DNA of 64,000 nt from Patescibacteria group bacterium UBA4787 (GCA_002402995.1 DHGX01000001.1:85625-149624), one strand, 5' to 3'; positions 5,119 through 58,222 are shown, counted from the stretch's first letter. A program made the numbers and translations. Notes: generated by a model not told the origin, from the sequence alone.

Positions 5119-5252
5119 AAGGTGCTTTACTTAAATTTCACCGGCTTTATAATAGAGGGTGTTAATCCTGTGTTTCCGCCGGTCGGCGGATCGTTCGCTT
5201 GATAATAAATTATTGAACCAAATGAATCTAAAATTATTTATTTTATAAAATT

Positions 5253-5819
5253 ATGCCACTTAATATTGATACAATTCCCGGGGGTAAGGAATTAATTGAT
5301 GCTCAAAAAACTCTCGAGACCGCTGGTATTATTGAAGGTATGCGCGTAGGAGATTTAGGCTGTGGCGCTCGCGGACTTTTTGCTCTACAAACAGCCAAAT
5401 TGGTTGGTCGCAAAGGATTGGTTTATGCTATAGATATTTTAAAAAATATTTTACATGGCATTGAAATAAACGCCAAAGAATATGGACTGAGTAACATCAA
5501 AACCGTTTGGTCGGATTTAGAAATTTATGGCGCTACAAAAATTCAGGAAAATTCTTTGGATATGTGTTTGTTGATCAATGTGCTTTTTCAAACCAAAGAC
5601 GATAAAACCGTAATTAGAGAGGCGGCGCGATTATTAAAAAACGGCGGCCGATTGTTGGTGGTTGATTGGGAAAAAACCGGCGCTCCTTTTGGTCCGAAAG
5701 TTGAAGAGAGGGTTAATGTTGATGCTCTGAAGAAATTCGCGCAAGAAATTGATATGATATTGGAAAAAGAATTTGAGCCAGGGCCTTATCACTTTGCGAC
5801 AGTTTTTATTAAAAAATAG
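5253..5819 (+). CDS. Class I SAM-dependent methyltransferase
   Basis: Motif I (VGDLGCGARG) and a post-I acidic residue; LLKNGGRLLVVDWE is motif IV-like. Confidence 0.65.
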   Translation: MPLNIDTIPGGKELIDAQKTLETAGIIEGMRVGDLGCGARGLFALQTAKLVGRKGLVYAIDILKNILHGIEINAKEYGLSNIKTVWSDLEIYGATKIQENSLDMCLLINVLFQTKDDKTVIREAARLLKNGGRLLVVDWEKTGAPFGPKVEERVNVDALKKFAQEIDMILEKEFEPGPYHFATVFIKK

Positions 5820-5876
5820 AAGGTGTTAAACCTTTTGTTGTTGCGTTCGCTCGCTTAATAATAAATTATTCATATA

Positions 5877-6236
5877 ATGGGACTAACCCAAGAAATCGGC
5901 CGTCGTGGGGAAAACGAGGCGGTTGATTTTTTAAAAAAGAAAAAATATAAAATAATTGGACGCAACTTCCGCACGTCTAAATTTGGCGAAATTGATATTA
6001 TTGCCGAAAACAATAACCAGCTGATTTTCGTGGAAGTTAAAGCGAAAACAAATTATAACTTCGGGGCCCCAGAAGAAGAATTCACGCGATATAAAAAGAA
6101 AAAAATGCGACGCGCTATTCAAGATTATTTTTGGGCCAAAAAGTTAGAAACCGAAAATTGGCGTATTGATTTGGTTGCCGTCGATTTTCTACGAGATAGA
6201 ACGGAAATTCGCCAACATACTATTTATCAAGATTAA
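5877..6236 (+). CDS. yraN: YraN-family (UPF0102) PD-(D/E)xK endonuclease-like protein
   Basis: GRRGENEAVDFL...GEIDIIAE...VEVKAK pattern typical of YraN. Confidence 0.75.
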   Translation: MGLTQEIGRRGENEAVDFLKKKKYKIIGRNFRTSKFGEIDIIAENNNQLIFVEVKAKTNYNFGAPEEEFTRYKKKKMRRAIQDYFWAKKLETENWRIDLVAVDFLRDRTEIRQHTIYQD

Positions 6237-6257
6237 GATTTTATTTTCCATCGCCAC

Positions 6258-6287
6258 TTGACAAAAAGCCTTAATTTTAAGTAAAAT
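6258..6287 (+). promoter_or_regulatory. Sigma70-like promoter (TTGACA, about 18 nt spacer, TAAAAT) upstream of the ARC ATPase gene
   Basis: cTTGACAaaaagccttaattttaagTAAAAT; followed by the GTTCTTTAAA leader motif at about 6333. Confidence 0.5.
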
Positions 6288-6369
6288 TAGATTGTCTTCT
6301 ATTTTAAGACAGAATAAAAATAAAATAGTTCTTTAAATAAAAAATCAAAATGGGAAAGGAGGGTGTAAA

Positions 6370-8094
6370 ATGCCCGAAACCTTGAAACAGCGTCTGCAGA
6401 AGTGGATTCGCGACGAGGGTAGTTCAATCGATAAACTGGTCGAGTTTATTCAGCAGGAAATCAACGCGGTTATCCAGGAAAAGATCAAGCAGGTCGGAGC
6501 TTTAGTCGAGAAACTAAAGAATAGCGAAAATGCGCGACTCGATTTATTTGAGAAGTTCCAGGAACTAGTGAAGCGCTACAAGAATCTGAAAGAGCCGCCT
6601 TCAAGCTATGGCCGTGTTTTAGACAAACAGAGCGAACACGATCGTCTATTAAATCAAGACACTAAAACCGTAACCATTATCACTGCCGAAGGACGGATTA
6701 TGAAGGTTTTAGCCGAATCCGATGAGCTGTATAACAGGTTAAAATTCGGCGACAGCGTAGTAATAAACGCTAACGGCAACATTACGGCCTGCGGCTCGTT
6801 CCTCGGTAATGGTAGAACTGCGACCATCGAAATTGTCCTTGATGCGCGCCGGGCCCTGATCAATACGGGTACGGATCACAAAGAGGAGGTTTATTTGGTC
6901 CCTGGTTTCGCCAGTTTGAAATCTGGTGACGTGGTGGTTTACGATCCGTATTCGCACTTCGTTCTGGAGAAGATTCCGAAGGACGCCAATTTGAGCGAAC
7001 TGGAGCTGGAAAAGGTTCCGAACATTTCTTTGGACGACATCGGCGGTTTGCCGGAACAGAAAAGCACTATTGCTTTTAATATCTTGTCGCCGTTGGTTTA
7101 TCCCGAGATTTTCCAGAAACAGAAGCTCGAAATGTCCAAGGGCGCGATTTTGATCGGCCCTCCGGGCTGCGGCAAGACCATGATGGCCAAAGCGATCGCT
7201 CACGAACTGACGATGCATATGCGGGAAAAGCTCAAGAACCCAACGGCTATGGGCTGCTTCCTTTATGTGCGCGGTCCGGAACTTTCCGCCTGGTTGGTCG
7301 GTATGACCGAGTACAAGCTGCGCGAATTGTTCAAGAAAGCGGTGGAGAAAGCCAAGGAAACTGGTATTCCAACCGTCATTTACATTGACGAGGTGGAATC
7401 TTTTTTGAGGACGCGTGGAACAGGGATCTCTTCTGATGTGAAGGACGATTACGTGACCCAATTTAACTCTTTGGTTGACGGCCTTGACGAGACCGGCGGT
7501 CTGGTGTTTGTGCTGGCAGCCTCTAATCGTCCGGACATGATCGACCCGGCTGTGATGCGCGAAGGCCGACTTGACCTGAAGGTGATGGTCAGCCGTCCGA
7601 CACGCACAGAGCATGCCGAGGACATCCTGCGCAAGTATTTGACTTCGGATCTTTATTTCGACAAGTGTCACGAGAATGACGATAAGACGGTCTTGGTCAA
7701 CGAGTGGATCAAGAAAATCGCCAACTTCATTTTCGCGGACACGGAAGAGACGGAGTTCATGCGAGTGGACTATGTTGACGGCACAAACGAGGTTCTGTAT
7801 TTCCGGCATTTCGTTTCCGGCGCATTACTGAAAGCAATCGTCGATGAGGCGAAGCGCAAAGCTATCCGGCGGGAAATGGAAAAGCGCGGTGACTGTGGCT
7901 TAACGATAGACGACTTCTTGTCGGCTACAACGGAAAAGTTCTGCCAGAATAAACATCTGATTGACAAAGATGCTCTGCGGCAGGAATTCATTCTGCGGCC
8001 GGGCAAGACCGTTGAGAAGGTCATCAGCCTCGTGGAAACCAAGGAGGTGGAGAAGGAGCGCGGTGGTCTGAATGTTGACAGTGATGCTGTGTAA
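6370..8094 (+). CDS. arc: Proteasome-associated AAA+ ATPase (ARC/Mpa-type)
   Basis: N-terminal coiled coil, a middle OB-like region, and a AAA module with Walker A GPPGCGKT, Walker B IYIDEVE and a second region of homology. It lies adjacent to pup, dop and prcBA genes. The C-terminus ends ...DSDAV and has no GQYL/HbYX motif. Confidence 0.8.
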   Translation: MPETLKQRLQKWIRDEGSSIDKLVEFIQQEINAVIQEKIKQVGALVEKLKNSENARLDLFEKFQELVKRYKNLKEPPSSYGRVLDKQSEHDRLLNQDTKTVTIITAEGRIMKVLAESDELYNRLKFGDSVVINANGNITACGSFLGNGRTATIEIVLDARRALINTGTDHKEEVYLVPGFASLKSGDVVVYDPYSHFVLEKIPKDANLSELELEKVPNISLDDIGGLPEQKSTIAFNILSPLVYPEIFQKQKLEMSKGAILIGPPGCGKTMMAKAIAHELTMHMREKLKNPTAMGCFLYVRGPELSAWLVGMTEYKLRELFKKAVEKAKETGIPTVIYIDEVESFLRTRGTGISSDVKDDYVTQFNSLVDGLDETGGLVFVLAASNRPDMIDPAVMREGRLDLKVMVSRPTRTEHAEDILRKYLTSDLYFDKCHENDDKTVLVNEWIKKIANFIFADTEETEFMRVDYVDGTNEVLYFRHFVSGALLKAIVDEAKRKAIRREMEKRGDCGLTIDDFLSATTEKFCQNKHLIDKDALRQEFILRPGKTVEKVISLVETKEVEKERGGLNVDSDAV

Positions 8095-8102
8095 ATCAAT
8101 CC

Positions 8103-8136
8103 AGAGGGGAGCTCAAGCTTCCCTCTTTTATTTATT
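8103..8136 (+). terminator. Rho-independent terminator after arc
   Basis: agaggggagctcaagcttccctc hairpin followed by TTTTATTTATTT. Confidence 0.6.
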
Positions 8137-8216
8137 TAATTAATTTTTTATTGACCAATGCACCTCGGCTTATTTTATCAAAAATAACGACTGTTGATAA
8201 AAACTTCTAAATGGGG

Positions 8217-8246
8217 TTGACAAATTGGGTTTTTTACAACTATAAT
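8217..8246 (+). promoter_or_regulatory. Promoter (TTGACA, 18 nt spacer, TATAAT) upstream of the dop-like gene
   Basis: gTTGACAaattgggttttttacaacTATAAT; leader motif CGTTCTTTAAA at 8269-8279; strong SD AAAGGGGG before the ATG at 8298. Confidence 0.6.
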
Positions 8247-8297
8247 TAAGTATTAAAAAATTAAATATCGTTCTTTAAAAAGAAAGGGGGTAACTCA

Positions 8298-9869
8298 ATG
8301 AGAATCCCAAAAGTTTTTGGCATAGAAACCGAATGGTCTGTTCGTGTTCGAACGCGCAATAGCGTCAGGTTAGCTAACGCCAAAGAATTCGGCGTATTAA
8401 TAAAATTTATACGCGAATTTTTTACTTTGACCAACACCAGACAAGATTCCCAATGGGAGGCTTGTTCGGTTGATGCTGACCGCGAGTTAGAGCAAGAAAT
8501 AGATCTGCGGCATATCGAGAGTGTTGGTTATCTACCGAACGGCGCTCGTTTATATGTCGACTGGCCGCATTTGGAATATTCAACGCCCGAATGTCAGACG
8601 ATTCGTGATTTAATCGCCGCTGACCAAGCTGGCAATTGGCTGCTTAATATGGCCGCCAAAAAAGCCAGTCAACTCTTGAAAAGAGAGATTATAATTATCA
8701 AAGATAATTCCGATCGCAAAGGCGTTTCTTATGCCAGCCACGAGAATTATTCTTTGCAGCCCAGAACATTTAAGGCCATGATCGACCGACAGAACAGCGA
8801 AGCTCGCGATTTGATTTTGCCGTTTTTGGTAACGCGTCAAATTTTGGCCGGAGCCGGCAAAGTTGGTTCCGAAGCTAATAATTTGAGATCTGCAGATTAC
8901 GGCGAAACAAATTTTCAGATTTCGCAACGCGCAGATTTTATCAATGAAATTATCGGTATCGCCACTACGTCGCCGCGCAATCTGATCAACAGGCGCGATG
9001 AACCACATGCTGATTCTGATCTCTGCCGGCGATTGCATGTTATTATTGGTGATGCCAATTTCTGCGATTGGTCTTATTTTTTGCGCGTTGGAACCTACGC
9101 TCTGGTTTTGCGCATGCTGGAAGATTGCTTTATCGGCAATTCGCCAGTTTGTGTCGACAACCACTGGCTCGAAGCGCTTTATCAGACCTCGCGAGATTTG
9201 ACATGCAAGAAGAAGTTGCAGATTGGCACGGCTAGTCAATCACAGATGAATCCGATCGAGATTCAGCGTTGGTATCTTGGCTTAGTCAAGGAATATCTTG
9301 CCGAGTTTAAAGGCAGCGCCGAAGATCATGAGGTTTGTGAAAAATGGGAATATGTTTTAAACGCTCTGGACAACGACCCGAACCAATTGTTCGGCGTCTT
9401 GGACTGGGTAACAAAGAAATGTATTCTTGATCAATATCTTCAACACCAAGGCTTGCTTTGGCAGGATTCTCGGCTCCGTGTAATCGACATAGCTTACCAC
9501 AATATTAGCGATGAGGCTGGTCTTTATTATCAATTTTTAAAAAAAGGGAAAATCCAGAAATTGATTAATAACGAGTTGTTAATGGATAGGGTTCATAATC
9601 CTCCCGTTGACACACGCGCCTATTTGCGCGGAAAGATCGCTCGGCTTTATCCTGAGTTTGTGGAAGATTGGGAGATAATTTCCAATCGCATGCCAAGTAG
9701 ATTTCGTAAGGAACAGTTGGATTCGTTAAGGGTTATCCTAGAAGAAAAACACATTATTACTTTGGGTAACCCGGTTTTAACGCGAGAAGAGAGCGAAGAA
9801 ATTTTCAAACAAATTATTAATCTTTTGAAATCATGGAAAGGAGGAAGCGAAGATGTTAACACGACTTGA
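8298..9869 (+). CDS. dop: Pup ligase/deamidase family protein, Dop-like (candidate Pup deamidase/depupylase)
   Basis: FGIETEW start motif and NGARLYVD.P..EYSTPEC. SHENYS, LPFLVTRQILAGAGKV, INRRDEPHAD, RRLHVIIGDAN and NPPVDTRAYLRG are all PafA/Dop signatures. It has the longest insertion of the three paralogs between GIETE and NGARLY and a C-terminal extension, which is Dop-like. Confidence 0.75.
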   Translation: MRIPKVFGIETEWSVRVRTRNSVRLANAKEFGVLIKFIREFFTLTNTRQDSQWEACSVDADRELEQEIDLRHIESVGYLPNGARLYVDWPHLEYSTPECQTIRDLIAADQAGNWLLNMAAKKASQLLKREIIIIKDNSDRKGVSYASHENYSLQPRTFKAMIDRQNSEARDLILPFLVTRQILAGAGKVGSEANNLRSADYGETNFQISQRADFINEIIGIATTSPRNLINRRDEPHADSDLCRRLHVIIGDANFCDWSYFLRVGTYALVLRMLEDCFIGNSPVCVDNHWLEALYQTSRDLTCKKKLQIGTASQSQMNPIEIQRWYLGLVKEYLAEFKGSAEDHEVCEKWEYVLNALDNDPNQLFGVLDWVTKKCILDQYLQHQGLLWQDSRLRVIDIAYHNISDEAGLYYQFLKKGKIQKLINNELLMDRVHNPPVDTRAYLRGKIARLYPEFVEDWEIISNRMPSRFRKEQLDSLRVILEEKHIITLGNPVLTREESEEIFKQIINLLKSWKGGSEDVNTT

Positions 9870-10602
9870 GTTGACTTGGCGATTAATGGATGAGCTAATC
9901 GCTCAATTCCTGAAATTGCCGAGCGCGATAGGACAGAGCGACTTTAAACTGGAAGAGTATTTACAGCAATCCCATCTTCACGGTACCACCGTCCTCGCTC
10001 TGAAATATCAGGGTGGAGTGCTGTTAGGTGGAGACGGTCGGGCTTCCGGCATGGATTTCCGTATTTTTACGGACAAAACTCCGAAGGTTTATCCGGTTTC
10101 CGAGTCGACTGCTTACGGTCTTTCTGGGGACGCTCATCTGGGTATTGAGGTGGGAAAGATCTTGGCTTTGACGCTTAAGAATTACGAGAAGAAAGAGTTT
10201 CGAGCCATGAGTTTTGTCGCTCAAACCAAGATGTTGGCTAAAATGATCGAGCGTTTACTGCCAATGGCTATGCAGGGCCGTATCGTGATGCCGATTTTCG
10301 TGTCATGTCAGGAAATCTGCACGATTTATCCGAATGGCATGGTGGTAAGGGGAGATGAAGGTTATGGTGGAATTGGTTCGGGTAGTCCTCACGCCATTCA
10401 TCGCATCAAGGCTCGTTTGGCTGATAACCCCAATCCAGATAAAACCAGGGCGATAGAAATTATACTCGAAGCTTTTGCGGAAGCTCATAAGAGTGATGCC
10501 GCAACCGGCTCTAATTTGCTGATTTATAGTCTGGAAGAGTCGGGAATCGCTATCGTTCGCAACGATGTCGGAAACGGACCGTTTTCGATGAACCTGTTGT
10601 AA
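9853..10602 (+). CDS. prcB: 20S proteasome beta subunit (PrcB) with propeptide
   Basis: The propeptide is followed by the active-site HG/TTVLALKYQGGVLLGGDGR, which matches the mycobacterial TTIVALKYPGGVVMAGDRR. The GIGSGS and AATGS motifs are present. The start overlaps the dop end by 17 nt and is preceded by GGAAAGGAGG. Confidence 0.85.
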   Translation: MLTRLELTWRLMDELIAQFLKLPSAIGQSDFKLEEYLQQSHLHGTTVLALKYQGGVLLGGDGRASGMDFRIFTDKTPKVYPVSESTAYGLSGDAHLGIEVGKILALTLKNYEKKEFRAMSFVAQTKMLAKMIERLLPMAMQGRIVMPIFVSCQEICTIYPNGMVVRGDEGYGGIGSGSPHAIHRIKARLADNPNPDKTRAIEIILEAFAEAHKSDAATGSNLLIYSLEESGIAIVRNDVGNGPFSMNLL

Positions 10603-10617
10603 TCGTGAGGTGAAATA

Positions 10618-11322
10618 ATGGCTGATAAATTGGATCTCATTGCCAACGACAAAGATAATGCCTTGCCGGTTATCGCAGTCAGCACCAAAGACGGCATACT
10701 TCTTGTCGCAATTAATTTTTCCATTAGTCCGGAGGATTCCGATACCTACATCCACAAACTTTCAGAGATCCATGACAATATCGGCATGGGCGCTTGTGGC
10801 AATAGCAGCGAGTATGATCCGCTGCGCAGGCAGTTTATCGACGTCGTTGATAGGCTTGCCTACGAGTTGTCCAAGGACGATATTGTCTTGAAGAGTCTGG
10901 CCAATAGTTTGGCCGGAGAGTTGCGCGATGTATATCGCAATCCCCGTCTGGTTCCTCGTGTGGTCTTCTTCGTCTTGGTGGAATGTCAGGAAGATTCGAA
11001 GCGGGATCGTTTCGTCCGGATCGGTCTCGACGGCAAGTTCAAGATCTTTAATAATTTCACGGTGATCGGCGGCAACGACAAAGAGGTTGGCGCTCTAATG
11101 GATAACCTCAGGTCCGTCGAATTTTTGGAGATGGACTGGCCGACCGCTTTAACCGCGATCAAGGAAGCGATAAAGAAAACCAACATCGCCCGGATCGCTG
11201 GCGCAAAGAAATCGGACAAGACCGTCGAACCGTTCCCATCCCTGGAGCTGGCAATTCTCTGGCGTGGAAGAACTGGCAGAAAATGGCAGCTTTTGCCGCA
11301 TCAAATTAAGGAGGTGAAATAA
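10618..11322 (+). CDS. prcA: 20S proteasome alpha subunit (PrcA)
   Basis: VIAVSTKDGILLVA, KLSEIHDNIGMGACGNSSEYDPLRR and VIGGNDKE align with PrcA segments. It follows prcB. Confidence 0.75.
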   Translation: MADKLDLIANDKDNALPVIAVSTKDGILLVAINFSISPEDSDTYIHKLSEIHDNIGMGACGNSSEYDPLRRQFIDVVDRLAYELSKDDIVLKSLANSLAGELRDVYRNPRLVPRVVFFVLVECQEDSKRDRFVRIGLDGKFKIFNNFTVIGGNDKEVGALMDNLRSVEFLEMDWPTALTAIKEAIKKTNIARIAGAKKSDKTVEPFPSLELAILWRGRTGRKWQLLPHQIKEVK

Positions 11323-11323
11323 A

Positions 11324-11527
11324 ATGCTTAAAAAGCAGTTTCTATTCTTAACCCCAGACGAGCAAGAAAAAAAGGAGACTGAAAAACATCCTCTGGGGCC
11401 CAAGCCCGGCGGACCTGGCTCCGGTAAGAAGGCAGACAAAAATGATGATAACATCGATGACATCCTTGATGACATCATCGAACGGAATAAGCGGGTTAAT
11501 GAAACTGACGAGCGAGAGGGTCAGTAA
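11324..11527 (+). CDS. pup: Prokaryotic ubiquitin-like protein Pup (67 aa, C-terminal -EGQ)
   Basis: Small acidic, disordered protein whose C-terminal half DDNIDDILDDIIERNKRVNETDEREGQ resembles the Pup helix plus the terminal G-Q. Strong SD AAGGAGGTG. Located between prcA and a pafA-like gene. Confidence 0.6.
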   Translation: MLKKQFLFLTPDEQEKKETEKHPLGPKPGGPGSGKKADKNDDNIDDILDDIIERNKRVNETDEREGQ

Positions 11528-11535
11528 TATTTAAT

Positions 11536-11568
11536 CCCCGCACTTTAAAATAGTGCGGGGATTTTTTT
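11536..11568 (+). terminator. Rho-independent terminator after pup
   Basis: ccccgcactttaaaatagtgcgggg hairpin followed by ATTTTTTTAT. Confidence 0.7.
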
Positions 11569-11673
11569 ATAATCGCAATGAGCGAGGCAGCAGAAATTTT
11601 ATTTTTAGATTGCCGGACAGGTCAGATTATATATTGAAGAGAGGCATAGTTCTCCTCTTCTTCTATTTTAATT

Positions 11674-11708
11674 TGACAAATCATCAAAAAAAGATAAGAT
11701 TTATATAA
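11674..11708 (+). promoter_or_regulatory. Promoter (TTGACAAAT-type) upstream of pafA-like paralog 2
   Basis: tTTGACAaatcatcaaaaaaagaTAAGATttatataag; GTTCCTTAAAA leader variant at about 11725. Confidence 0.45.
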
Positions 11709-11755
11709 GAAAAATAATAATGTTGTTCCTTAAAATTATTCAAGGAGAGAATAAA

Positions 11756-13285
11756 ATGAAGAAGAGAATTATTGGGATAGAGAATGAATATCGGATTCAG
11801 GCTCTGCCCGGATTCGATAAAAGCAGATACAAGGTTTATTTTCGGGGATTGAAAATAAGCTTGAATCAGTTTCTATCCAACGGAGCGAGGTTTTATTTGG
11901 ATTTTCCGAGCGAACTGCCGGAGTATTGCACGCCGGAAGTTACGACCATCCGTGAAGTTCTGGCGCATGAACGCGCCGGAGATTATATTGTCTGGGAGAG
12001 CCTGAAAGACATGATGGAAATTTTTAGGCGGAATACCAGTCAGCCAGGTCTCTTTTACAAATATCTGGCAAGTGGTTGTCATGAGAACTATCTTTTTTAT
12101 CTTGATGAAGCTATCAAGTCAACTGCGAATATCTACCCGCAGATGAGCGGCCACATCTTGGCAAGATTGGTGGCTTTTTTGGGGCCCTTCTTGGTCTCTC
12201 GACAGATTTTTTGCGGCGCTGGTTGGTGGTTAACAAATGAAGATGGGCGAAGTTATTTTAATATTTCGCAGCGCGCCCATTTTATGAAGCGTGATTACGG
12301 CGGAGACACGATGCAGAATAGGGCGATTATCAATTCTCGGAATGAATCATTGTGTTCGTCGAGCAATTATTCTCGTCTTCATCTCATTGTTGGCGACTCC
12401 AATATGAGCGATCTCTCTGGTTTTCTCAAGCTCGGCACCACGTCTATCGTTTTAAGGATGATCGAAGCAGGCTTCTTTGATCCACAAGACATTGTTCTAG
12501 TTGATCCGGTTGCGGCTATCGCTGTCATTTCCGATGATTTGAGCTGTAAGGCGACTGTCCAGGCCGGCGGTTTGCATCGTTCGCTTTCAGCCATTGACAT
12601 CCAAGAGTGGTATCTTAATAAAGCTCGTGAATTTTTTGAATGTCGAGAAGTATCCGAAGAGGAGAAGGAGGTTATAAAATATTGGCAGGAAGTTTTGGAC
12701 AAACTGCGCCGAGACCCCATGCTTCTCAAAGAGGAGATCGACTGGGTGATCAAATATAATTTGATTTGCCGTTATGCTGAAAAACACGGTGTTGATCTCG
12801 ATCATTGTTCGGACGAGGAGAGTGAAGCGCTGAGAGTCATTGACACTCATTATCATTCTCTAAATCCGGAGAGAGGTTTGTACCACAAGCTTCTCGGCGC
12901 TGGGAAGATCGCCAAGCTTATTAGTGATAAAGAGGTGGCTTTGGCAATAAAATCTCCACCGACTGATACGCGAGCCAAAGTCCGTGGTGACTTCATTTCT
13001 TTCATCCTGAAAAATCATGCGGATTTGGTTAGGTATTTCATCGTCAATTGGGACGCTATTCGTTATAATTATCGTGCTAATGGATTTTCTAGGCTGATCC
13101 ACGAATTTCAACCTAATCAAGACGATGAATCGGTGAAAGCCTGTGTTTTCAATCTCGGCGATCCGTTTCTTTCAACAGAAACTTGCAACAACTTCCAAGT
13201 ATTGGTTGAAGAGATTGAGTCTCACCAAGAATTTTTCAAATCTATGATACCAACTCCGTCTCCTGACCATCGCGATTATGAATAG
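11756..13285 (+). CDS. pafA: Pup ligase family protein, PafA-like (paralog 2)
   Basis: IGIENEY, NGARFYLDFP.ELPEYCTPE, GCHENYL, RLHLIVGDSNMSD, LKLGTTSIVLRMIE, EIDWVIKYNL, PPTDTRAKVRG. Start chosen at MKKRII with SD AAGGAGAG. The GIENE-to-NGARFY spacing is short, which is PafA-like. Confidence 0.8.
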   Translation: MKKRIIGIENEYRIQALPGFDKSRYKVYFRGLKISLNQFLSNGARFYLDFPSELPEYCTPEVTTIREVLAHERAGDYIVWESLKDMMEIFRRNTSQPGLFYKYLASGCHENYLFYLDEAIKSTANIYPQMSGHILARLVAFLGPFLVSRQIFCGAGWWLTNEDGRSYFNISQRAHFMKRDYGGDTMQNRAIINSRNESLCSSSNYSRLHLIVGDSNMSDLSGFLKLGTTSIVLRMIEAGFFDPQDIVLVDPVAAIAVISDDLSCKATVQAGGLHRSLSAIDIQEWYLNKAREFFECREVSEEEKEVIKYWQEVLDKLRRDPMLLKEEIDWVIKYNLICRYAEKHGVDLDHCSDEESEALRVIDTHYHSLNPERGLYHKLLGAGKIAKLISDKEVALAIKSPPTDTRAKVRGDFISFILKNHADLVRYFIVNWDAIRYNYRANGFSRLIHEFQPNQDDESVKACVFNLGDPFLSTETCNNFQVLVEEIESHQEFFKSMIPTPSPDHRDYE

Positions 13286-13326
13286 TCCCGTTCTGGCTGA
13301 TTGAAATCCCCATTTTATTTTTATTA

Positions 13327-13356
13327 ACGCTCCTAAATAATTAGGAGCGTTTTAAA
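13327..13356 (+). terminator. Terminator after pafA-like paralog 2
   Basis: gctcctaaataattaggagcg hairpin followed by TTTTAAATTT. Confidence 0.55.
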
Positions 13357-13357
13357 T

Positions 13358-13386
13358 TTGACAAATTATCAAAAAACGCTAAGCTT
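13358..13386 (+). promoter_or_regulatory. Promoter (TTGACAAAT-type) upstream of pafA-like paralog 3
   Basis: tTTGACAaattatcaaaaaacgcTAAGCT; CGTTCTTTACAAAGAAGGG leader nearly identical to the dop leader. Confidence 0.45.
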
Positions 13387-13430
13387 TAAATAATAAAATT
13401 AAAATCGTTCTTTACAAAGAAGGGAATAAA

Positions 13431-14900
13431 ATGCAAAAACGCATTTATGGTTTGGAGACTGAGTATAGGTGGTGGAGTTCCTTGCCGGAGAAAAACCCCG
13501 ATAATCCGAGTCAGGTTTTTTCCGGATATCATTTGAATACTATAGTCAATTACTATCCGGGTAATTATTCTGGCTTTTTGCCAAACGGCGCTAGGTTTTA
13601 TGTGGACATGGTTCGGTTTCCAGAGTTCTCAACTCCGGAATGTGCGAGTGTTAGAGATGCCGTGATTTGGGATAAGGCAGGGGAAAAAATAGTTTTCGAT
13701 TGTTTGGGCGGCGCTGTTGTCATCCGAAAAAGAAATTTAGGCAGCAACGGAAAAGTACAGGGTTGCCACGAGAATTATTTGATCGATCGCCAGGTCTTAT
13801 TGAAAGATCGCGACATCTCTCTCGGTCATGTCCATTTGGTCGAACGAGACTTTAATTATTTGGCCGATCGTCTAATTCCTTTTTTGGTGACGCGCCAGGT
13901 TTTCTGCGGCACCGGCGCCATTATGGAGTTCCCACAAATTCAGATAGGGGAAAATCCTTCAACTCAGTGTTTATATCGCTATGTCATTTCACAGCGAGCT
14001 TTCAGAATCGAGCATTTAATCCACGCCGAGACTACTAATAATCGGCCGATCATTAACATGCGCAATGAGCCTCTGTGCGGTGGCGACGAGAGATATTTCC
14101 GCCTGCATCTGATTCTGGGTGATTCTAATCTTTCAGAGTTTTCGACTTTCTTGAAATTGGGTACTACTGGCATAATCTTGCGGATGATTGAGGCTGATTT
14201 TTTAGACACAACCAGTATTGCTCTGCTTGATCCATTAGCAGCTCTTCGGCAAGTCGCGATAGATCCGACTTGCAAAAAAAGGCTAGACTTGGTTGATCAA
14301 CGTCAGTTTTCAGCTATCGACATTCAACAGTGGTATCTCGACAAAGCCAATAAGTTCTTCCAGCGCAACGAAGCTTCAGAAGAGGAAAAAGAAGTGATTG
14401 AGCGTTGGCAAGAAACGTTGGACAAACTGCGCCGAGACCCCATGCTTCTCAAAGAGGAGATCGACTGGGTGATCAAGCTCAACGCTTTGATAAGATATTG
14501 CGAATCTCGCAATTTATCTTTTGACAGCGAAGAAGCAAGGCGTCTTGACGTGGCTTATCATGATCTTGATCCGGATAATTCTCTCTACTTAAAACTTCTT
14601 AAACGTGGTCGCGTCAAGAGGTTAGTTGCCGAGGAAGAGATCGAGAACGCCATTGTTAATCCGCCCGATACGCGCGCCAAAATTAGAGGTTCTGTTATAC
14701 TGGCAATCAACGATTATATTAATCGTTCGTCTATTGGCCGTGATCGCGGCATCTTAATAAACTGGGATTTGGTTTCTGTGTATGCTTCTACGATTCCTCC
14801 TACCACTACTTCTGATAAGATAATAACACTAAGCGATCCTTTCGCGGTGGAAAATTCGGAAATCCAGGCTCTAGTCAACCAATTAAATGCTACACTTTAA
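13431..14900 (+). CDS. pafA: Pup ligase family protein, PafA-like (paralog 3)
   Basis: YGLETEY, NGARFYVD...FPEFSTPEC, GCHENYL, LIPFLVTRQVFCGTGA, RLHLILGDSNLSE, LKLGTTGIILRMIE, EIDWVIKLNAL and PPDTRAKIRG. Confidence 0.8.
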   Translation: MQKRIYGLETEYRWWSSLPEKNPDNPSQVFSGYHLNTIVNYYPGNYSGFLPNGARFYVDMVRFPEFSTPECASVRDAVIWDKAGEKIVFDCLGGAVVIRKRNLGSNGKVQGCHENYLIDRQVLLKDRDISLGHVHLVERDFNYLADRLIPFLVTRQVFCGTGAIMEFPQIQIGENPSTQCLYRYVISQRAFRIEHLIHAETTNNRPIINMRNEPLCGGDERYFRLHLILGDSNLSEFSTFLKLGTTGIILRMIEADFLDTTSIALLDPLAALRQVAIDPTCKKRLDLVDQRQFSAIDIQQWYLDKANKFFQRNEASEEEKEVIERWQETLDKLRRDPMLLKEEIDWVIKLNALIRYCESRNLSFDSEEARRLDVAYHDLDPDNSLYLKLLKRGRVKRLVAEEEIENAIVNPPDTRAKIRGSVILAINDYINRSSIGRDRGILINWDLVSVYASTIPPTTTSDKIITLSDPFAVENSEIQALVNQLNATL

Positions 14901-40422: not shown

Positions 40423-40433
40423 TCAGCGCGTTT

Positions 40434-41034: not shown

Positions 41035-41047
41035 AGCGACGAGTATG

Positions 41048-41186
41048 CCAGGTAGTGAAAATTCGATAGTGCTTTTCGCTTCAGCTTACTATCTGGTTCT
41101 ATCATCAATAAAATATTGATTTTTACTACTAGTGCATTTATATTAATAACTGCACTTTTAAGAAACATCGAATTTCTACTACCTGG
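41048..41186 (+). mobile_element. 139-bp miniature inverted-repeat element, family C copy 1
   Basis: The TIRs ATGCCAGGTAGTGAAAATTCGATAG ... CATCGAATTTCTACTACCTGGTAT nearly match the second copy at 46587-46725 (same 139 bp length). The element ends 1 nt before the ATG at 41188. Confidence 0.65.
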
Positions 41187-42697: not shown

Positions 42698-42864
42698 GCG
42701 GAATTTATTTGAATTTGAGGCATTTTCGGGGCTCGCAACTTAAGAATTGAATATTTATAGTTTTCCGCATGGTGTTTTCTGATAGTTTTGTTAGTATGTT
42801 ATAGTATCGACCAGTCAAAAAGTCGAAGCGAATAATAAATAAAATAACAAAATAATAAAAATTT

Positions 42865-46512: not shown

Positions 46513-46586
46513 ACCTTGTTATTTATAATTAAAGGTTAGTAAAATCGCTCCATTGGAGCGATTTTACTTTCCGTTTTAAATATATG

Positions 46587-46725
46587 CCAGGTAGTGAAAA
46601 TTCGATAGTGCTTTTTGCTTCGGCTCATTACTTGGTTTCGTTGTTAACAAAATAACTAATCTTTGCTTCCAGCGCACTCCTTAATATAATCGCACTTCAA
46701 GAAGCATCGAATTTCTACTACCTGG
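46587..46725 (+). mobile_element. 139-bp miniature inverted-repeat element, family C copy 2
   Basis: Same TIRs as 41048-41186; ends 1 nt before the trmD ATG. Confidence 0.65.
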
Positions 46726-47541: not shown

Positions 47542-47670
47542 AGTATTGTTAATTTATATAGCCAAGTTCTTTAAAAATTTATTTTTTAGTTCAAACCACT
47601 ACAAAAATTCTTAAATTTTTTGTAGTTGCAAATTTTGAGTTTTGTAAATTTTTAGTATCAAATTTTTGTT

Positions 47671-49193
<1,523 letters not shown>

Positions 49194-49342
49194 AGAGGAT
49201 ATATCCCGACTATATGTCGGGATGGTCGATACTTTTCTTTTCCCTTGGGAATTAAGAGTATTTTCTCAAATATTTGCAACTACAAAAAGCTTAGGAATTT
49301 TTTTATTTAAATTAAAAATTTTAATAATTTTTAACAAAAAAA

Positions 49343-49370
49343 CTGCCGACTCAAGGCAGTATTTTGTATT
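49343..49370 (+). terminator. Rho-independent terminator downstream of the 16S
   Basis: aaaaaaactgccgactcaaggcag followed by TATTTTGTATT. Confidence 0.55.
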
Positions 49371-49496
49371 ATTTGACTTTGATTGACCGTGTTTTAGCTA
49401 CAATCAAAACATAACTATTTATATAAATCACGTTGCGATCATAATAATTTTAAAAAGAATCAGAGAAAATTCAGTATCTTTTAATATAATTACATA

Positions 49497-49524
49497 TTGA
49501 CAAAAGACGGGTTTCTGCTATGTT
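49497..49524 (+). promoter_or_regulatory. Promoter for the 49578 gene
   Basis: TTGACAaaagacgggtttctgcTATGTT; SD AAAGGAGGT before the ATG. Confidence 0.45.
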
Positions 49525-49577
49525 TATATGAACATAATTTGTTCATTAAATAAAAATTAAAAAGGAGGTATCAGGTC

Positions 49578-50111
49578 ATGTACTCCGTGTTGATCGTTGT
49601 TGGTCTTTTTGCAATCATCGGTGTAGCTTCTGCTCTTGCTTCCCGTTCTTTGGAGATGGTTGTCCCTGTGACCATAGCCCTTGCAATCGTCGGTTTATTC
49701 GTCGGCTTGGCCGCCGTTTTGATAATTAGCTTTTTTCTGCCTATTACAACCGACATGATTTTGGTAGATTGTAAGACTTTGGCCGGCGTACAGGATGTTA
49801 ACGGAGTGTATGGTTCTTTTTTTCTCGGTTGTGGCGAAGTGAACGGTGAATTGGTTTATCGATATTTTGAGAAAATCGGAGCCAATTCTTATCGTCCCGC
49901 CGAGATAAGAACGCCATGCGACAGCCGCGTCGAAATCGTGGAAAAAGACGATCTCAAAATCGGCTTCTTAGAAATTTGGCAAACGACTACTTCGCTCCAT
50001 AACCCCAAACTGAAAAATTGGTTTTTTAATCTTGGGGGGGGTTCTAAGTTAGTAAAATTTATCGTGCCCAAGGGCTCAGTCGTCCGCCAATTCCGATTCG
50101 ATTTGCAATAA
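49578..50111 (+). CDS. Hypothetical membrane protein
   Basis: Two N-terminal TM helices and a strong SD; no domain recognised. Confidence 0.4.
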   Translation: MYSVLIVVGLFAIIGVASALASRSLEMVVPVTIALAIVGLFVGLAAVLIISFFLPITTDMILVDCKTLAGVQDVNGVYGSFFLGCGEVNGELVYRYFEKIGANSYRPAEIRTPCDSRVEIVEKDDLKIGFLEIWQTTTSLHNPKLKNWFFNLGGGSKLVKFIVPKGSVVRQFRFDLQ

Positions 50112-50123
50112 ATCGCATCAGTT

Positions 50124-50156
50124 AACCTGCTGTTAATCAACGGCAGGTTTTTATTA
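50124..50156 (+). terminator. Rho-independent terminator
   Basis: aacctgctgttaatcaacggcaggtt followed by TTTATT. Confidence 0.6.
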
Positions 50157-50201
50157 ATGGTTGATAATCTTGATTTATAAATAATTTATGAAATTAAAAA
50201 A

Positions 50202-50273
50202 TGCCGGAGGTCAGAATCGAACTGACAACGCAAGGATTTTCAGTCCTTCGCTCTACCACTGAGCTACTCCGGC
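50202..50273 (-). tRNA. tRNA-Phe (anticodon GAA)
   Basis: The reverse complement GCCGGAGTAGCTCAGTGGTAGAGCGAAGGACTGAAAATCCTTGCGTTGTCAGTTCGATTCTGACCTCCGGCA gives a canonical cloverleaf. Confidence 0.9.
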
Positions 50274-50363
50274 AAATAAATATGTATTTTGTTAATGGGC
50301 ATTTAGTCCACCAGCTGGTGGAGAACCCTAGTCCTCTTCCGCCTGCCCCGTTAAATTTCTGAA

Positions 50364-50434
50364 TGGGCGACCAAGGAATCGAACCCTGTTCTCTTCCGTG
50401 TAAAGGAAATGTTTTACCATTAAACTAGTCGCCC
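50364..50434 (-). tRNA. tRNA-Val (anticodon TAC)
   Basis: The reverse complement GGGCGACTAGTTTAATGGTAAAACATTTCCTTTACACGGAAGAGAACAGGGTTCGATTCCTTGGTCGCCCA. Confidence 0.85.
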
Positions 50435-50501
50435 AAGATTAATTTAACGGGGTGGATAAAGGAAGCTTAATCCCTTTATAATACCCATTATTTTTTTAAA
50501 G

Positions 50502-50574
50502 TGGACCCTAGGGGGCTCGAACCCCTCACCTCTTCCATGCCATGGAAGCGCTCTACCAACTGAGCTAAGGGCCC
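50502..50574 (-). tRNA. tRNA-Ala (anticodon GGC)
   Basis: The reverse complement GGGCCCTTAGCTCAGTTGGTAGAGCGCTTCCATGGCATGGAAGAGGTGAGGGGTTCGAGCCCCCTAGGGTCCA has the G3-T70 pair typical of tRNA-Ala. Confidence 0.85.
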
Positions 50575-50595: not shown

Positions 50596-50670
50596 ATATT
50601 CGTCATGCTTCGTGAAATTGGTTCGCTACGGAATCAGACAAAAAGATTTTTGTCTGTCCCCCTGTTTGCC
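50596..50670 (-). repeat. Intergenic repeat family 2 copy
   Basis: The reverse complement ATAATTGGCAAACAGGGGGACAGACAAAAATCTTTTTGTCTGATTCCGTAGCGAACCAATTTCACGAAGCATGACGA matches copies at 55683 and 63536. Confidence 0.6.
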
Positions 50671-50703
50671 AATTATATAACTTTTGAGATAAAAATCAAG
50701 AGC

Positions 50704-55494: not shown

Positions 55495-55559
55495 AAGATT
55501 AATCTACATTTAAATTTATTAATTATTAAAGCTATAAATAAATATATCATTTTTTATAA

Positions 55560-55890
55560 TTTTTGGCAAGTTGATACCGAGAAGATTTTTAAAATTTAAT
55601 ATTTCGGCGCTATCCACACTTTATCCCCATTTTATCCTCGAAACTCCAAAAAATTTCGTTTCAATTATAAACGATCGATGTTATAATTGGCGAACGGAGG
55701 AACAGACAATTTTTTGTCTAATTCTGTAGCGAGCCAATTTCACAGAGCGAAGCAAGTATAATTGGCAGCAGGGATAAAACAAAAATTTTCCGCCAGCTGG
55801 CGGATTGATTTTATCCGAAGCGCTCAAATTTCAGAAGCGAGGCGACTATATTTTTTTTGTTGATCAAGCTAATAAAAATAAAATAAATTT
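55560..55890. promoter_or_regulatory. Candidate chromosomal origin (oriC) region upstream of dnaA
   Basis: Consecutive DnaA-box-like 9-mers cTATCCACA (55611), TTATCCCCA (55621) and TTATCCTCG (55632), and TTATCCGAA (55810). The flank is AT-rich and dnaA is immediately downstream. The region also contains repeat family 2 copies (55683-55760, and a degenerate one at 55757-55850). Confidence 0.5.
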
Positions 55891-57252
55891 ATGGAGATAA
55901 ATCGGGAACAATTGTGGCAGGCTGTTATGGCAGAATTAGAGTTAATTATTCCCCGAGTAAATTTTTTAACATGGTTCCAGAGCACGCATTTATTGACGGC
56001 TAATTGTGAGAGCGGCGAAGCGGTGGTCGGTGTGCCGAACAATTTTACCAAAGAATGGTTAGAGAAAAAATACCATAAATCTATACTTAATATTTTACAA
56101 AATTTAACTGACAACAAGGTTAAAATAATAATTTATCAAGTAGAGGGAACGCCAATCACTATTTCCAAAACTATCCCCAAGGTTGATTTAGCGCGCCTGG
56201 AAAAAATGATGCCGACAGAAGAGCCGAACATTTCTGAGCTTAATCCACGTTATACTTTCGAAATGTTTGTCGTGGGTAAAGGGAACGAGTTGGCTTATGC
56301 TGCCGCGCAAGCAGCCGCCGAAGCTCCCGGGGAAAAATATAACCCACTTTTTATCTACGGTGGTGTTGGTTTGGGTAAAACTCATCTTTTGCAAGCAATC
56401 GGCGGCGCCGTTTTAAAAAGAAATGGCCGTCTAAAAGTTATGTATACAAATGCCGAGAAATTTACCAATGAATTCGTCAGGGCTATTCGCGACGGCAACG
56501 TGGAAAAGTTTAAAAGAATTTATCGCAACCTGGACGTATTTTTAATCGACGATATACAATTTATCGCCGGCAAAGAAAGCACACAAGAAGAATTTTTCCA
56601 TACCTTTAATGCTTTGCATCAAAAAGACAAACAGATTGTAATAACATCCGATCGCTTGCCCAAAATTATTCCGGCTCTAGAAGAAAGGTTAATGTCCCGT
56701 TTTGAATGGGGCTTGATCGCCGATGTTTCTTCGCCAGACTTAGAAACCAGAATGGCTATTTTGAATAGCAAATGTAAAGAAAGGAATTATGAATTAAGCC
56801 AGGAAATTATCCAATATCTTGCCAGTCATATCCAGAAGAATGTGCGCGAATTAGAGGGCGCTTTAAGTAAAATTATGGCTTATCATGAGATGAATAGAAC
56901 GATTCCGACTATAGATTCAGTGAAACAAATAATGTCTAGTTTAGCCGCACAACCCAAGAAGTCTTTGATTAATTCAAAGCAGCTTATTAACGCAGTGGCA
57001 GAATTTTATGGGATCAAGCTTCCCGACTTGGTCGGCGATTCTCGAAAAAAAGAATTGGTTGGTCCGCGTCAAGTAGCTATGTTTTTATTGCGTGAAGAGT
57101 TAAACGTTTCGTTCCCATTCATCGGCCAAGAATTGGGTAATCGCGATCATACTACGGCTATGCACGCTCACGATAAAATCAAAAAAGAATTGGAGGGTGA
57201 TGGCCGCGTTAAACAAGAGATTGATTATATTAAACAAAGGCTTTATAATTAA
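55891..57252 (+). CDS. dnaA: Chromosomal replication initiator DnaA
   Basis: Walker A GGVGLGKTHLL, box VII, and the C-terminal DNA-binding helix (GNRDHTTAMHAHDKI). Confidence 0.9.
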   Translation: MEINREQLWQAVMAELELIIPRVNFLTWFQSTHLLTANCESGEAVVGVPNNFTKEWLEKKYHKSILNILQNLTDNKVKIIIYQVEGTPITISKTIPKVDLARLEKMMPTEEPNISELNPRYTFEMFVVGKGNELAYAAAQAAAEAPGEKYNPLFIYGGVGLGKTHLLQAIGGAVLKRNGRLKVMYTNAEKFTNEFVRAIRDGNVEKFKRIYRNLDVFLIDDIQFIAGKESTQEEFFHTFNALHQKDKQIVITSDRLPKIIPALEERLMSRFEWGLIADVSSPDLETRMAILNSKCKERNYELSQEIIQYLASHIQKNVRELEGALSKIMAYHEMNRTIPTIDSVKQIMSSLAAQPKKSLINSKQLINAVAEFYGIKLPDLVGDSRKKELVGPRQVAMFLLREELNVSFPFIGQELGNRDHTTAMHAHDKIKKELEGDGRVKQEIDYIKQRLYN

Positions 57253-57293
57253 TATTGTCGTCAATTTCTGATTTTTAGTTTTGAGCCAATTGT

Positions 57294-58130
57294 ATGTATA
57301 TTATTAAGGCCGATGGAAAACGTGAACGTTTTAATGCGAGAAAAATTCTGCGCACTTGTTTGCGTGCCGGCGCTGATCGAATATCGGCCAACGAGGTAAC
57401 GAATCGCATTAACCAAGAGGTGCGTGAAGGAATGACCACGCGCGAGATTTTACAACGCACGCTTTCTTATTTGAACGCAATTAATCCTGCGGTGGCTGCT
57501 AAATATTCTTTAAAAGATTCTATGTTCAAATTGGGTCCGGCTGGTTTCCAGTTCGAACAATTTTTATTAAGGATTTTTCAGGAATACGGATACCGAACAA
57601 AACATTCTCAAATTATTCAAGGCGCTTGCGTTAAACACGAAATAGATATTGTATTATTCTCAAAAAATATTTATTCAACAGTGGAATGCAAATATCATAA
57701 CTCTCCCGGCGTTTATACCGGCATTAAAGATGTACTTTATGTTTGGGCCAGATTTTTAGACCTGCGCGACGGTTACAAGAAAGGACTGTGCGCTAATTTT
57801 AAAGAAGCGTGGCTGGCTTCTAATACCAAGTTTTCCGACTGGACGATTCAATATGCTGAGTGTAAAAAAATGAAGCTTTTGGGTTGGAATTGGCCGGTCG
57901 AAGGAGGCCTGGAGAAATTAATTGAAAACAAAAAACTTTATCCAATCACAATTATCCCTAATTTGGAACCCGATCTTCGGGCAAGGTTCGTTAAAGCAAA
58001 TATTATATTGTGTCGTGACTTGGTTTCTTATGATTCAACTCGCCTATTATCTGTGGCCAAAGTTAAAGCCAGTCGTCTAAAAGATATAATTTCGTTGGCC
58101 GATCAGATATTGAATCATTCTAATTATTAA
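57294..58130 (+). CDS. ATP-cone domain protein with C-terminal PD-(D/E)xK nuclease-like domain
   Basis: N-terminal IIKADGKRERFNARKILRTCLRAG is ATP-cone-like; the C-terminal HEIDIVLF...VECKYH looks like a restriction-endonuclease-like core. Confidence 0.45.
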   Translation: MYIIKADGKRERFNARKILRTCLRAGADRISANEVTNRINQEVREGMTTREILQRTLSYLNAINPAVAAKYSLKDSMFKLGPAGFQFEQFLLRIFQEYGYRTKHSQIIQGACVKHEIDIVLFSKNIYSTVECKYHNSPGVYTGIKDVLYVWARFLDLRDGYKKGLCANFKEAWLASNTKFSDWTIQYAECKKMKLLGWNWPVEGGLEKLIENKKLYPITIIPNLEPDLRARFVKANIILCRDLVSYDSTRLLSVAKVKASRLKDIISLADQILNHSNY

Positions 58131-58146
58131 AAATTTGAATAAATTT

Positions 58147-58222
58147 ATTTGTGAGCAAGCGAGGGAAAAGCAAATGAATTTGCTTTTCCGAGCGAGCGAA
58201 ACAAACACAGGGTTAATAGTTT
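58147..58222 (-). repeat. Intergenic repeat family 1 copy (reverse orientation) with perfect internal palindrome
   Basis: GAGCAAGCGAGGGAAAAGCAAATGAATTTGCTTTTCCGAGCGAGCGAAACAAACACAGGGTTAATAG. Confidence 0.6.

Follow-up and report, generated by a model that had tools for sequence, protein, structure and literature searches.

Structured non-coding units inserted 3' of AATAA in intergenic DNA of a Patescibacteria lineage: probable non-autonomous miniature insertion elements

A stretch of 64,000 nucleotides from the genome of Patescibacteria group bacterium UBA4787 (GCA_002402995.1 DHGX01000001.1:85625-149624; hereafter the window, with positions counted from its first letter) carries an intergenic repeat, here called family 1, which a preliminary description of the same DNA had reported as at least eight copies of a short element with conserved ends. 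The members of family 1 are structured, non-coding units without terminal inverted repeats (TIRs) that insert in either orientation directly 3' of (A)AATAA in A/T-rich intergenic DNA. They are probably non-autonomous miniature insertion elements of a Patescibacteria (Candidate Phyla Radiation, CPR) lineage, which would be mobilised by an HUH-type enzyme acting in trans. The family fits none of the classes considered, namely miniature inverted-repeat transposable elements (MITEs) of the DDE type, REP/RAYT, BOX, Correia elements and integron attC sites. Among bacterial miniature insertion elements, it is best regarded as a new variant that resembles IS200/IS605. No description of it was found in the searchable literature on MITEs and repeats of Patescibacteria or CPR, and the family appears to be undescribed.

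The copies were identified with a covariance model (R1) built from 35 copies, 33 from other genomes plus two from the window (c6 and c8), and run with filters off. Applied to the 64 kb, R1 recovered all eight reported copies (c1 to c8), each at or near its reported position, with E = 2e-18 to 2e-3 and nothing else significant. The scores range from 91 bits for c6 to 25 bits for c3, and c7 was split into two partial matches. Both conserved end modules of the preliminary description are correct; across the eight copies the left module reads (ATAA/ATAG)-A(A)GG(R/T)RTTAA(N)CC(C)TGTGTT, and the right module CTCGCT(T/C)(G/A)ATAATAA or CTCACAAATAA. The 13-nt core TTAACCCTGTGTT, allowing up to two mismatches, gave eight matches in the window against 1.37 expected, a number reached in none of 100 shuffles, with two of the eight being chance matches outside family 1. 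The density in the window is about one element per 7 kb, and a ninth copy of the same genome lies directly upstream of the window (locus L120, 946-1022).

Further copies were found with a degenerate pattern for the left end: a scan of metagenome contigs, drawn from several projects on groundwater and sediment, returned 34 loci (numbered with L). The invariance of the left end is in part an artefact of this search pattern, while the right end, both stems, the flanks and the orientation lay outside it. In total, R1 detects 63 copies in the 34 loci and the window (291 kb), with up to five copies per 12 kb, all of them intergenic. The host is a groundwater Patescibacteria of the Minisyncoccia type, and identical contigs are present in the runs SRR1313281-84 and in a JGI sample. 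A 14-nt pattern scan of genome contigs returned chance matches only (one candidate, L067, was checked and rejected), and no copies were found among IMG/VR viral contigs. Two more distant relatives, L166 and L168, have no copies in 39 kb. Conversely, a consensus short copy in L144 stands beside a 16S rRNA gene that is only ~74% identical to that of the window, suggestive of either horizontal spread or strong constraint.

Comparison of insertion sites with those of relatives, as proposed in the preliminary description, yielded five sites that are filled in one genome and empty in the other. Locus L173 is syntenic with about 20 kb of the window and is empty at the positions of c4 (29715-29909, plus strand), c6 (39862-39939, minus strand) and c7 (40433-40629, minus strand). 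The flanks of these three sites are 79-94% identical between the two genomes; the empty c4 site reads GAAATAA↓AATAATT (arrows mark insertion points), and at the c6 site the host promoter TTGACA-17-TATTAT is conserved in both. The reverse situation is seen for a 78-nt copy of subfamily B (see below) at L173 13426-13503, to which corresponds an unoccupied target in the window between 42710 and 42711 (AAATAA↓ATTCC in minus-strand reading, 42704-42717), and for an 89-nt B-type copy in L139, located exactly where the window reads AAAAATAA↓AATAG without an insertion (6316-6328, plus strand; junction between 6323 and 6324). Locus L129 was rejected as a source of empty sites because it is too diverged. 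These clean pairs, together with tandem arrays, random orientation and decaying copies, bear out the earlier proposal that the repeats are small mobile elements.

Other comparisons give a relative chronology. L173 holds an orthologue of c5 (7444-7552) that differs by compensatory changes in two of the stems described below, P1 and P2. As c5 is common to the window genome and L173, it is older than their split. The c2 copy is absent from the distant relative L166, where a mere 4 nt separate its two neighbouring genes, and two loci from different samples (L152 and L153) hold identical 79-nt copies in different flanks. Most copies in the window are diverged or truncated, and many are degenerate or have lost the central hairpin. 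Short-read assemblies of the window organism break inside c7 and c8, the expected effect of a multi-copy repeat. The combined data fit an element with young, active copies in some relatives, whereas those of the window genome are old and in decay.

The target is narrowly defined. Read in the orientation of the element, four of the five empty sites are AAATAA↓A; the fifth, the c7 site, is GCACAA↓A in L173 versus GCATAA in the window. Of 46 non-redundant sites, about 36 have ATAA as left flank; the others hold long forms, which themselves begin behind another ATAA. The right flank opens with A in 36 of the 46. At four independent sites (the L120 copy, c1, c2 and a copy in L147, L147b) the left flank is ATAG, a sequence never found at the right end; the left flank also varies at positions -5 and -6, whereas the right AATAA is invariant. 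Thus, the right AATAA is read as borne by the element and not as duplicated target, and insertion is read from these flanks as proceeding without obligatory target duplication, a fixed 4-5 bp duplication being formally possible. Behind the target, the left end reads ATAA↓AGGGTATTAACCC. Since the element itself ends in AATAA, a resident copy is in turn a target, which accounts for tandem arrays (L125, L148, L154, L134 and L123) whose units have a single ATAA between them, with right/left junctions of the form ..GATAATAA↓AGGGTATT...

Of about 26 sense copies, at least 11 follow an ATAA or ATAG that contains the stop codon of the gene upstream. Frequently a start codon comes 2-12 nt beyond the element, too close for a Shine-Dalgarno sequence to fit in between. 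The preliminary description had placed the copies immediately upstream of start codons; this is part of the pattern, for which the position of the left end after ATAA or ATAG, often an upstream stop codon, is the sharper rule. Among copies between co-directional genes, 18 are sense and 22 antisense.

The presence of AATAA on both sides of each filled copy, and once per empty site, is also what a classical MITE would leave behind, moved by a DDE transposase with a short fixed duplication (TAA, ATAA or AATAA) as in IS5/PIF- or IS630-type elements. Family 1 shares with such elements its small size, multiple copies, intergenic position and insertion in either orientation. We consider this explanation rather unlikely. 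The 35-copy alignment shows that the termini are not inverted repeats (left AGGGTATTAACC, right ..CGCTTGATAATAA), and the sole complementarity between the two ends, the stem P0, lies 17-23 nt inside the left end. ATAG at four independent left flanks and variation at -5/-6, opposite an invariant right end, favour a right end borne by the element over a duplication. Moreover, the Pfam tables of ~110 kb of element-bearing sequence show no DDE transposase, and no parent insertion sequence with the same ends was seen in the loci scanned.

The basic unit is about 80 nt long; forms without the central hairpin measure 41-45 nt (c2, L144) and expanded forms 110-200 nt. It is composed of a 5' hairpin (P1), a 7-bp long-range stem (P0), two pyrimidine-rich strands of GCTC repeats and a variable central hairpin (P2), and its canonical sequence is AGGGTATTAA(A)CCCTGTGTT-ATCTGCGCTCGCTCGG-[hairpin]-C(N)CTCGCTCGCTTGATAATAA. 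P1 is AGGGTATTAACCCT (AGGGT-ATTA-ACCCT), with a 5-bp stem. In P0, an internal TGTT(ATC/TGT/TTT) pairs with the last bases of the element, (GAT/ACA/AAA)AATA. The conserved GCTC-repeat strands run between P0 and P2, in the same sense on both arms, and P2 itself comprises 10-12 bp in which the sequence is free and the pairing is kept. Two subfamilies are distinguished by their ends: A has ..GTTATC.. on the left and ..GATAATAA on the right, B has ..GTTTGT.. and ..CACAAATAA. In c4, c5, c7, L139 and L148, a large-looped GC stem stands in place of the hairpin or next to it, and long forms (c8, L127, L133 and others) carry an extra 5' module that itself starts ATAA↓AGGG. As a separate observation, relatives differ by independent indels of 13-16 nt that are small GC-rich palindromes (CTGCCAGCTGGCAG, CCGCCAGCTGGCGG; L139 ~470-485 versus window ~6350). 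Such palindromes are also found in c1, L125, L129 and L137, replacing P2 in some elements; they may represent a second, even smaller mobile or recombinogenic module.

The preliminary description had called for a test of conserved secondary structure across copies. The structure proved real and conserved, indicating a structural requirement at the DNA or RNA level. RNAalifold, run on a MAFFT alignment with no structural input, predicted P1 (AGGGT/ACCCT), P0 (TGTTATC with the 3'-terminal GATAATA) and P2; three positions of P0 are compensatory, as are many of P2. P0 covaries blockwise with subfamily, AUC/GAU in A versus UGU/ACA in B, in 12 sequences; with the additional states TTT/AAA in L120 and GTT/AAT in c2, three to four states exist overall. 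The pairing is broken in a chimeric copy, L127a. In the 63-copy alignment, which was fitted to R1 and therefore leans towards structure, 94.6% of cells pair, compared to 82.6% for column shuffles and ~50% for slid partners, and both partners vary in 20 of the 24 pairs. Folding individual copies as DNA returned the P1/P0/P2 structure again, with z-scores of -3.9 to -7. Counts of G·T versus A·C mismatches point to no preferred strand, with the exception of one invariant G·T pair in P0.

We infer an HUH-type enzyme from five features in combination: asymmetric ends, a fixed short sequence on the left, its recurrence at the right terminus, hairpins, and covarying pairing of a terminal with an internal heptamer across a hairpin. 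A strand-specific enzyme acting on folded single-stranded DNA would cut and join behind AATAA at either end; IS200/IS605 "peel and paste" and rolling-circle transposition of the IS91 kind are the models. In this scheme P0 would serve as the guide/cleavage-site pairing and the hairpins as protein handles, and the enzyme would be provided in trans from elsewhere in the genome. IS608, for which single-strand HUH transposition has been described, inserts 3' of a fixed sequence without gain or loss of flanking bases, and relies on subterminal hairpins and a guide-paired cleavage site (PMC3201880). 

IS200/IS605 elements and the PATE-type miniatures resemble family 1 in their asymmetric ends without inverted repeats and in inserting just 3' of a short fixed sequence without a duplication that could be demonstrated. 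Hairpins near the ends are a further likeness, as is a terminal sequence, the putative cleavage site in family 1, that pairs internally, P0 around P2 being comparable to the right guide and cleavage sequences (GR/CR) around the right imperfect palindrome (IPR). By the same logic, a right end that ends in the target sequence explains the tandem arrays. The target AATAA is distinct from the known IS200/IS605 types, TTAC or TTGAT. A more specific version of this scheme, in which family 1 is the non-autonomous form of an unrecognised CPR single-strand-DNA transposon whose internal heptamer presents AATAA to a trans-acting HUH-type or novel enzyme, is put forward as a conjecture, more doubtful than not.

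Several observations weigh against the HUH assignment. First, no transposase, HUH protein or recombinase was found in the Pfam tables of ~110 kb of element-bearing sequence, nor in a motif scan of all loci. An autonomous long version was likewise not found, left and right ends being always less than 210 nt apart in the window and in L119-L165. Second, the hairpins differ from their counterparts: P1 (5 bp) and the sequence-free P2 (10-12 bp, variable) are dissimilar, whereas the end hairpins of IS608 are alike, and P1 directly adjoins the cut site, so that a separate left guide would not fit, while the left hairpin of IS608 is 19 nt from it. Third, the variable part of P0 neither predicts nor matches the target flanks. 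Fourth, IS200/IS605 elements usually show an orientation bias to replication (lagging-strand template), and the nine copies of the window genome are distributed as five plus and four minus along a uniformly positive GC skew, a sample too small (n = 9), with the origin unlocated, for this point to count for much. Finally, the compensatory changes between the c5 orthologues and the consensus copy in a host with ~74% 16S identity are compatible with selection for a host function.

The enzyme was also sought close to the copies. The window represents 64 kb of a genome of at least 262 kb; it encodes no transposase, integrase or HUH protein, and the genes beside its copies are all housekeeping genes (methyltransferase/UPF0102, lspA/comM, DUF5701, nrdR/T2SSE ATPase and a Germane-domain protein). 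A scan of the loci for the Y1 HUH motif, the gene tables of relatives, and Pfam searches on the neighbours in the densest loci returned no transposase. A 119-aa gene between two copies in L147 and L156 was considered and rejected, as it encodes a membrane protein; it is unrelated to the gene between c6 and c7.

The joined ends of family 1 (TTATC..CTTGATAATAA-AGGGTA followed by a hairpin) resemble the double-strand origin of plasmid pC194 (CTTATCTTGATAATAAGGGTA followed by a hairpin; plasmid sequence checked). The nick site of pC194, CTTG↓ATA, does not coincide with the boundary of the element; it would fall 7 nt inside the right boundary, and subfamily B is without CTTGATA, two further points against an HUH enzyme of this kind. 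A pC194-type origin was therefore rejected and the resemblance kept as a lead only. A BLAST search of the joined ends versus plasmids and phages gave chance-level matches. IS91 targets CTTG/GTTC, family 1 AATAA, and within family 1 CTTGATA is present solely in A-type right ends.

Covarying stems with conserved loop sequences are the classic signature of a functional fold, and family 1 could accordingly be viewed as a structured RNA or cis-regulatory module (mRNA stabiliser, processing site, leader, small RNA or ribozyme) that spreads secondarily. The compensatory changes in the c5 orthologues can be read in this way, as can the sense copies c2, c5 and L120 946-1022, which exactly span the distance from stop codon to next start codon in operons, and an RNase III gene is encoded in the window. 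Nevertheless, such a module is unlikely as the primary identity of the family. The ratio of 22 antisense to 18 sense copies, the lack of any Rfam match, a P2 without a following T-run and the absence of a conserved frame all argue against a primary strand-specific RNA role. Rfam was negative for the elements at gathering score in the window, and at E <= 10 in four element-rich loci. A terminator scan did not flag P2, which has no T-run behind it and so is not an intrinsic terminator, the only match being a weak 5-bp one of antisense P1 with its TTTAT flank. Presence differs between close relatives at five sites, and many individual copies in the window are decayed. The RNA-structural or regulatory role suggested in the preliminary description is thus not upheld as a primary function.

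Two other ideas were discarded. A Shine-Dalgarno or 5'-leader function was rejected on the grounds of random orientation. The idea of a small open reading frame (ORF) or leader peptide (Shine-Dalgarno-like AAGG, then GTG, ending TGATAATAA) fails because copy lengths are not multiples of three but take every residue modulo 3, and no reading frame is kept in the element.

Very unlikely is a third possibility, that the copies are domesticated protein-binding DNA sites, recognised by a nucleoid protein, gyrase or a Rep-like protein through GCTC repeats on the two sides of a cruciform, with a chromosome-structuring role as proposed for REP/BIME. The two conserved same-sense (GCTC)n strands around a sequence-free hairpin would suit such sites, and conservation is very high across hosts with divergent 16S rRNA. 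The conservation of the left end is partly imposed by the search pattern, the binding protein is hypothetical, and the decay of copies and their presence/absence polymorphism speak against a need at individual sites. Chance similarity of A/T-rich intergenic ends, with which the right-end motif alone would agree (seven matches in the window versus 3.8 expected, not significant), can be dismissed, since the left-end motif and full-length R1 are highly significant, the GC-rich interior is alike as well, and the unit recurs in unrelated samples.

Non-autonomous insertion elements moved in trans by an HUH-type enzyme remain the preferred identity of family 1, and other known repeat classes can be set beside it. 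REP/REPIN sequences and their RAYT partners come close: they are short, structured, very abundant, strictly intergenic, non-coding and found in both orientations, and their mobilisation is likewise ascribed to an HUH protein acting in trans. A REP is a single palindrome of 20-40 nt with a foot tetranucleotide, e.g. GTAG, usually in inverted pairs (BIME/REPIN). Family 1, by contrast, is an 80-nt two-hairpin unit with a long-range stem, distinct ends, direct tandems and a defined AATAA site. The term "REP-like" used previously holds as an analogy only, in that the copies are short, structured, intergenic and non-coding; it does not extend to a GTAG-type tetranucleotide or a rule of inverted pairing, and no RAYT (Y1 HUH) gene was found in the window or the loci.

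The BOX elements of Streptococcus pneumoniae and the SNRs of Deinococcus are modular, with conserved ends, a variable or repeated middle, short and long forms and stable folds, all as in family 1. No sequence relationship to BOX is known, nor is BOX known to have such a defined target, and to our knowledge there are no clean empty sites that would demonstrate its mobility. The DDE-type bacterial MITEs, among them Correia/NEMIS, RUP and ERIC, are similar in size, copy number and intergenic insertion into untranslated regions (UTRs) and operon spacers. Like them, family 1 can bear outward promoter-like hexamers (TTGATA in the A-type right end); those elements possess long TIRs and TA/TAA duplications made by a known insertion-sequence partner, whereas family 1 is devoid of TIRs. 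Integron attC sites were rejected, since inspection of the consensus revealed no core sites (R''/R', RYYYAAC ... GTTRRRY), the copies occur in both orientations among housekeeping genes, and the sequence is highly conserved.

The individual copies in the window illustrate the range of forms, and the coordinates given in the preliminary description are broadly right. The first, c1 (5156-5208, plus strand; 27.8 bits, E = 4.5e-4), is a short A-type form with ATAG as left flank and a GC palindrome, CCGCCGGTCGGCGG, in place of the variable P2. A possible decayed tandem remnant, c1' (5119-5155, plus strand), was recognised by eye and is tentative, its R1 score not being significant; it reads AAGGTGCTTTACTT..TTTCACCGGCTTTATAATAG, directly follows the stop codon TAG at 5116-5118 and provides the ATAG before c1. 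With 33.3 bits, c2 (5820-5864, plus strand) is a 45-nt form without P2 whose P1 is the covarying variant AAGGT/ACCTT; it occupies the spacer from the methyltransferase stop codon TAG (5817-5819) to the start of the UPF0102 gene at 5877. The decayed c3 (22474-22514, minus strand; 24.6 bits, E = 2.4e-3) is likewise without P2 and has AAATAA as left flank; its previous coordinate "22471-23" is a typo.

The end of c4 had been missed. R1 detected its left part; with its right end at 29888-29909, it is a long B-type copy with a GC-stem insertion, a large loop and the B-type right end TCTCTCGCTTGTCCACAAATAA. It starts about 8 nt downstream of a -10 box (TGgTATACT) and hence belongs to the 5' UTR of the gene for the Germane-domain protein. 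The next copy, c5 (36428-36535, plus strand; 48.1 bits), is of A type, has an additional hairpin rich in GC, and fills the spacer from the lspA stop codon TAA (36425-36427) to the comM start at 36547. It is one of the two copies already reported to share a GC-rich core; the other is c7, and the core comprises 29 nt at 100% identity.

Near consensus, c6 is a 78-nt A-type copy (91.3 bits), antisense in the 5' UTR of a 140-aa gene and just 3' of the host promoter mentioned above. The A-type right end holds TTGATA, a -35-like hexamer, which at c6 forms with the flanking TAAAAT a 10/12 outward promoter-like site on the minus strand (39832-39871). The expanded A-type copy c7 (197 nt, partial matches of 32.5 and 20.9 bits) is antisense and lies directly after the terminator hairpin of the same 140-aa gene; its limits, like the start of c8 at 58292, are corrected here. 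An alignment of long-form 5' modules shows c8 (58145-58292, minus strand) to be a long-form B-type copy, in which an extra ~70-nt 5' module (ATAA↓AGGTGTTTACC..) precedes the standard 78-nt unit (80.3 bits for 58145-58222). It is antisense, with its left end 6 nt from the ATG of the T2SSE ATPase gene (58299). The palindrome GAAAAGCAAAT..ATTTGCTTTTC, formerly ascribed to several copies, has its perfect form in c8 alone, with imperfections in c5 and a degenerate version in c4. At this position c6 and c1 have other palindromes, and c2 and c3 none. In the best explanation, effects on neighbouring genes such as new stop codons, lost Shine-Dalgarno spacing and the outward -35-like TTGATA are by-products of insertion.

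Other features were noted in the window and in L168. A Pup-proteasome island at 6370-14900, between UPF0102 and nusA, encodes an ARC-type AAA ATPase, proteasome alpha and beta, two paralogous Pup-ligase/deamidase genes and a 67-aa Pup-like ORF. In two relatives UPF0102 is directly followed by nusA, and the GC content of the island is ~0.44 versus 0.38 around it; the island thus has the look of a horizontal acquisition, an unusual one among Patescibacteria. Two adjacent genes of ~400 aa without a Pfam match, at 16543-18955, separate nusA from the gene for trigger factor, whereas in L166 and L168 nusA and the trigger factor gene are adjacent. At 47666-50574, the 16S rRNA gene is not followed by a 23S gene, so that the rRNA genes are unlinked; a 177-aa ORF and three opposite-strand tRNA genes are found there instead. 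In L168, an element-free relative, several small stand-alone GIY-YIG nuclease genes (91-117 aa) occur among housekeeping genes (1250-1603, 9116-9391 and 15166-15450).

Further repeats were noted. A second one, TATGCCAGGTAGTGAAAATTCGATAGTGC..., is located at 41044-41115 and 46583-46654 (72 nt, 82% identical), upstream of a DUF4015 gene and trmD; it is conserved in other genomes (L147 1571-1728, L151 ~180) and may be a shared leader or small RNA. A third family (TATAATTGGCGARCGGAGGAAYAGACAA with an inverted partner) lies at 50607-50680, 55674-55748 and 63528-63600, upstream of dnaA, upstream of leuS and beside a tRNA cluster, and looks like a shared promoter or leader module. Two intergenic repeat pairs unrelated to family 1 (31338-31384/35833-35879 and 31553-31596/35941-35984) are 87-95% identical and about 4.4 kb apart.

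The genomes of Patescibacteria are very small and densely packed with genes, and mobile DNA is usually described as scarce in them. The elements of family 1 nevertheless sit in operon spacers, 5' UTRs and stop codons of core genes, including lspA-comM, ABC-transporter genes and pilB, and so show that, within essential operons, a structured insertion separating one gene's stop codon from the following start is tolerated. If the family is indeed the non-autonomous form of a single-strand-DNA transposon, its precise landing on TAA stops and its compact fold would explain why it is tolerated inside the operons of streamlined genomes, and near-identical copies across ~74% 16S identity would reflect recent horizontal spread over deep Patescibacteria lineages. 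Family 1 is a known cause of assembly breaks in these metagenomes, and it can serve to trace recent genome dynamics as well as the horizontal exchange of DNA among uncultured lineages. With its 80 nt, fixed AATAA and covarying guide-like stem, it also offers a compact substrate for finding the enzyme, which could be a reprogrammable single-strand DNA integrase.

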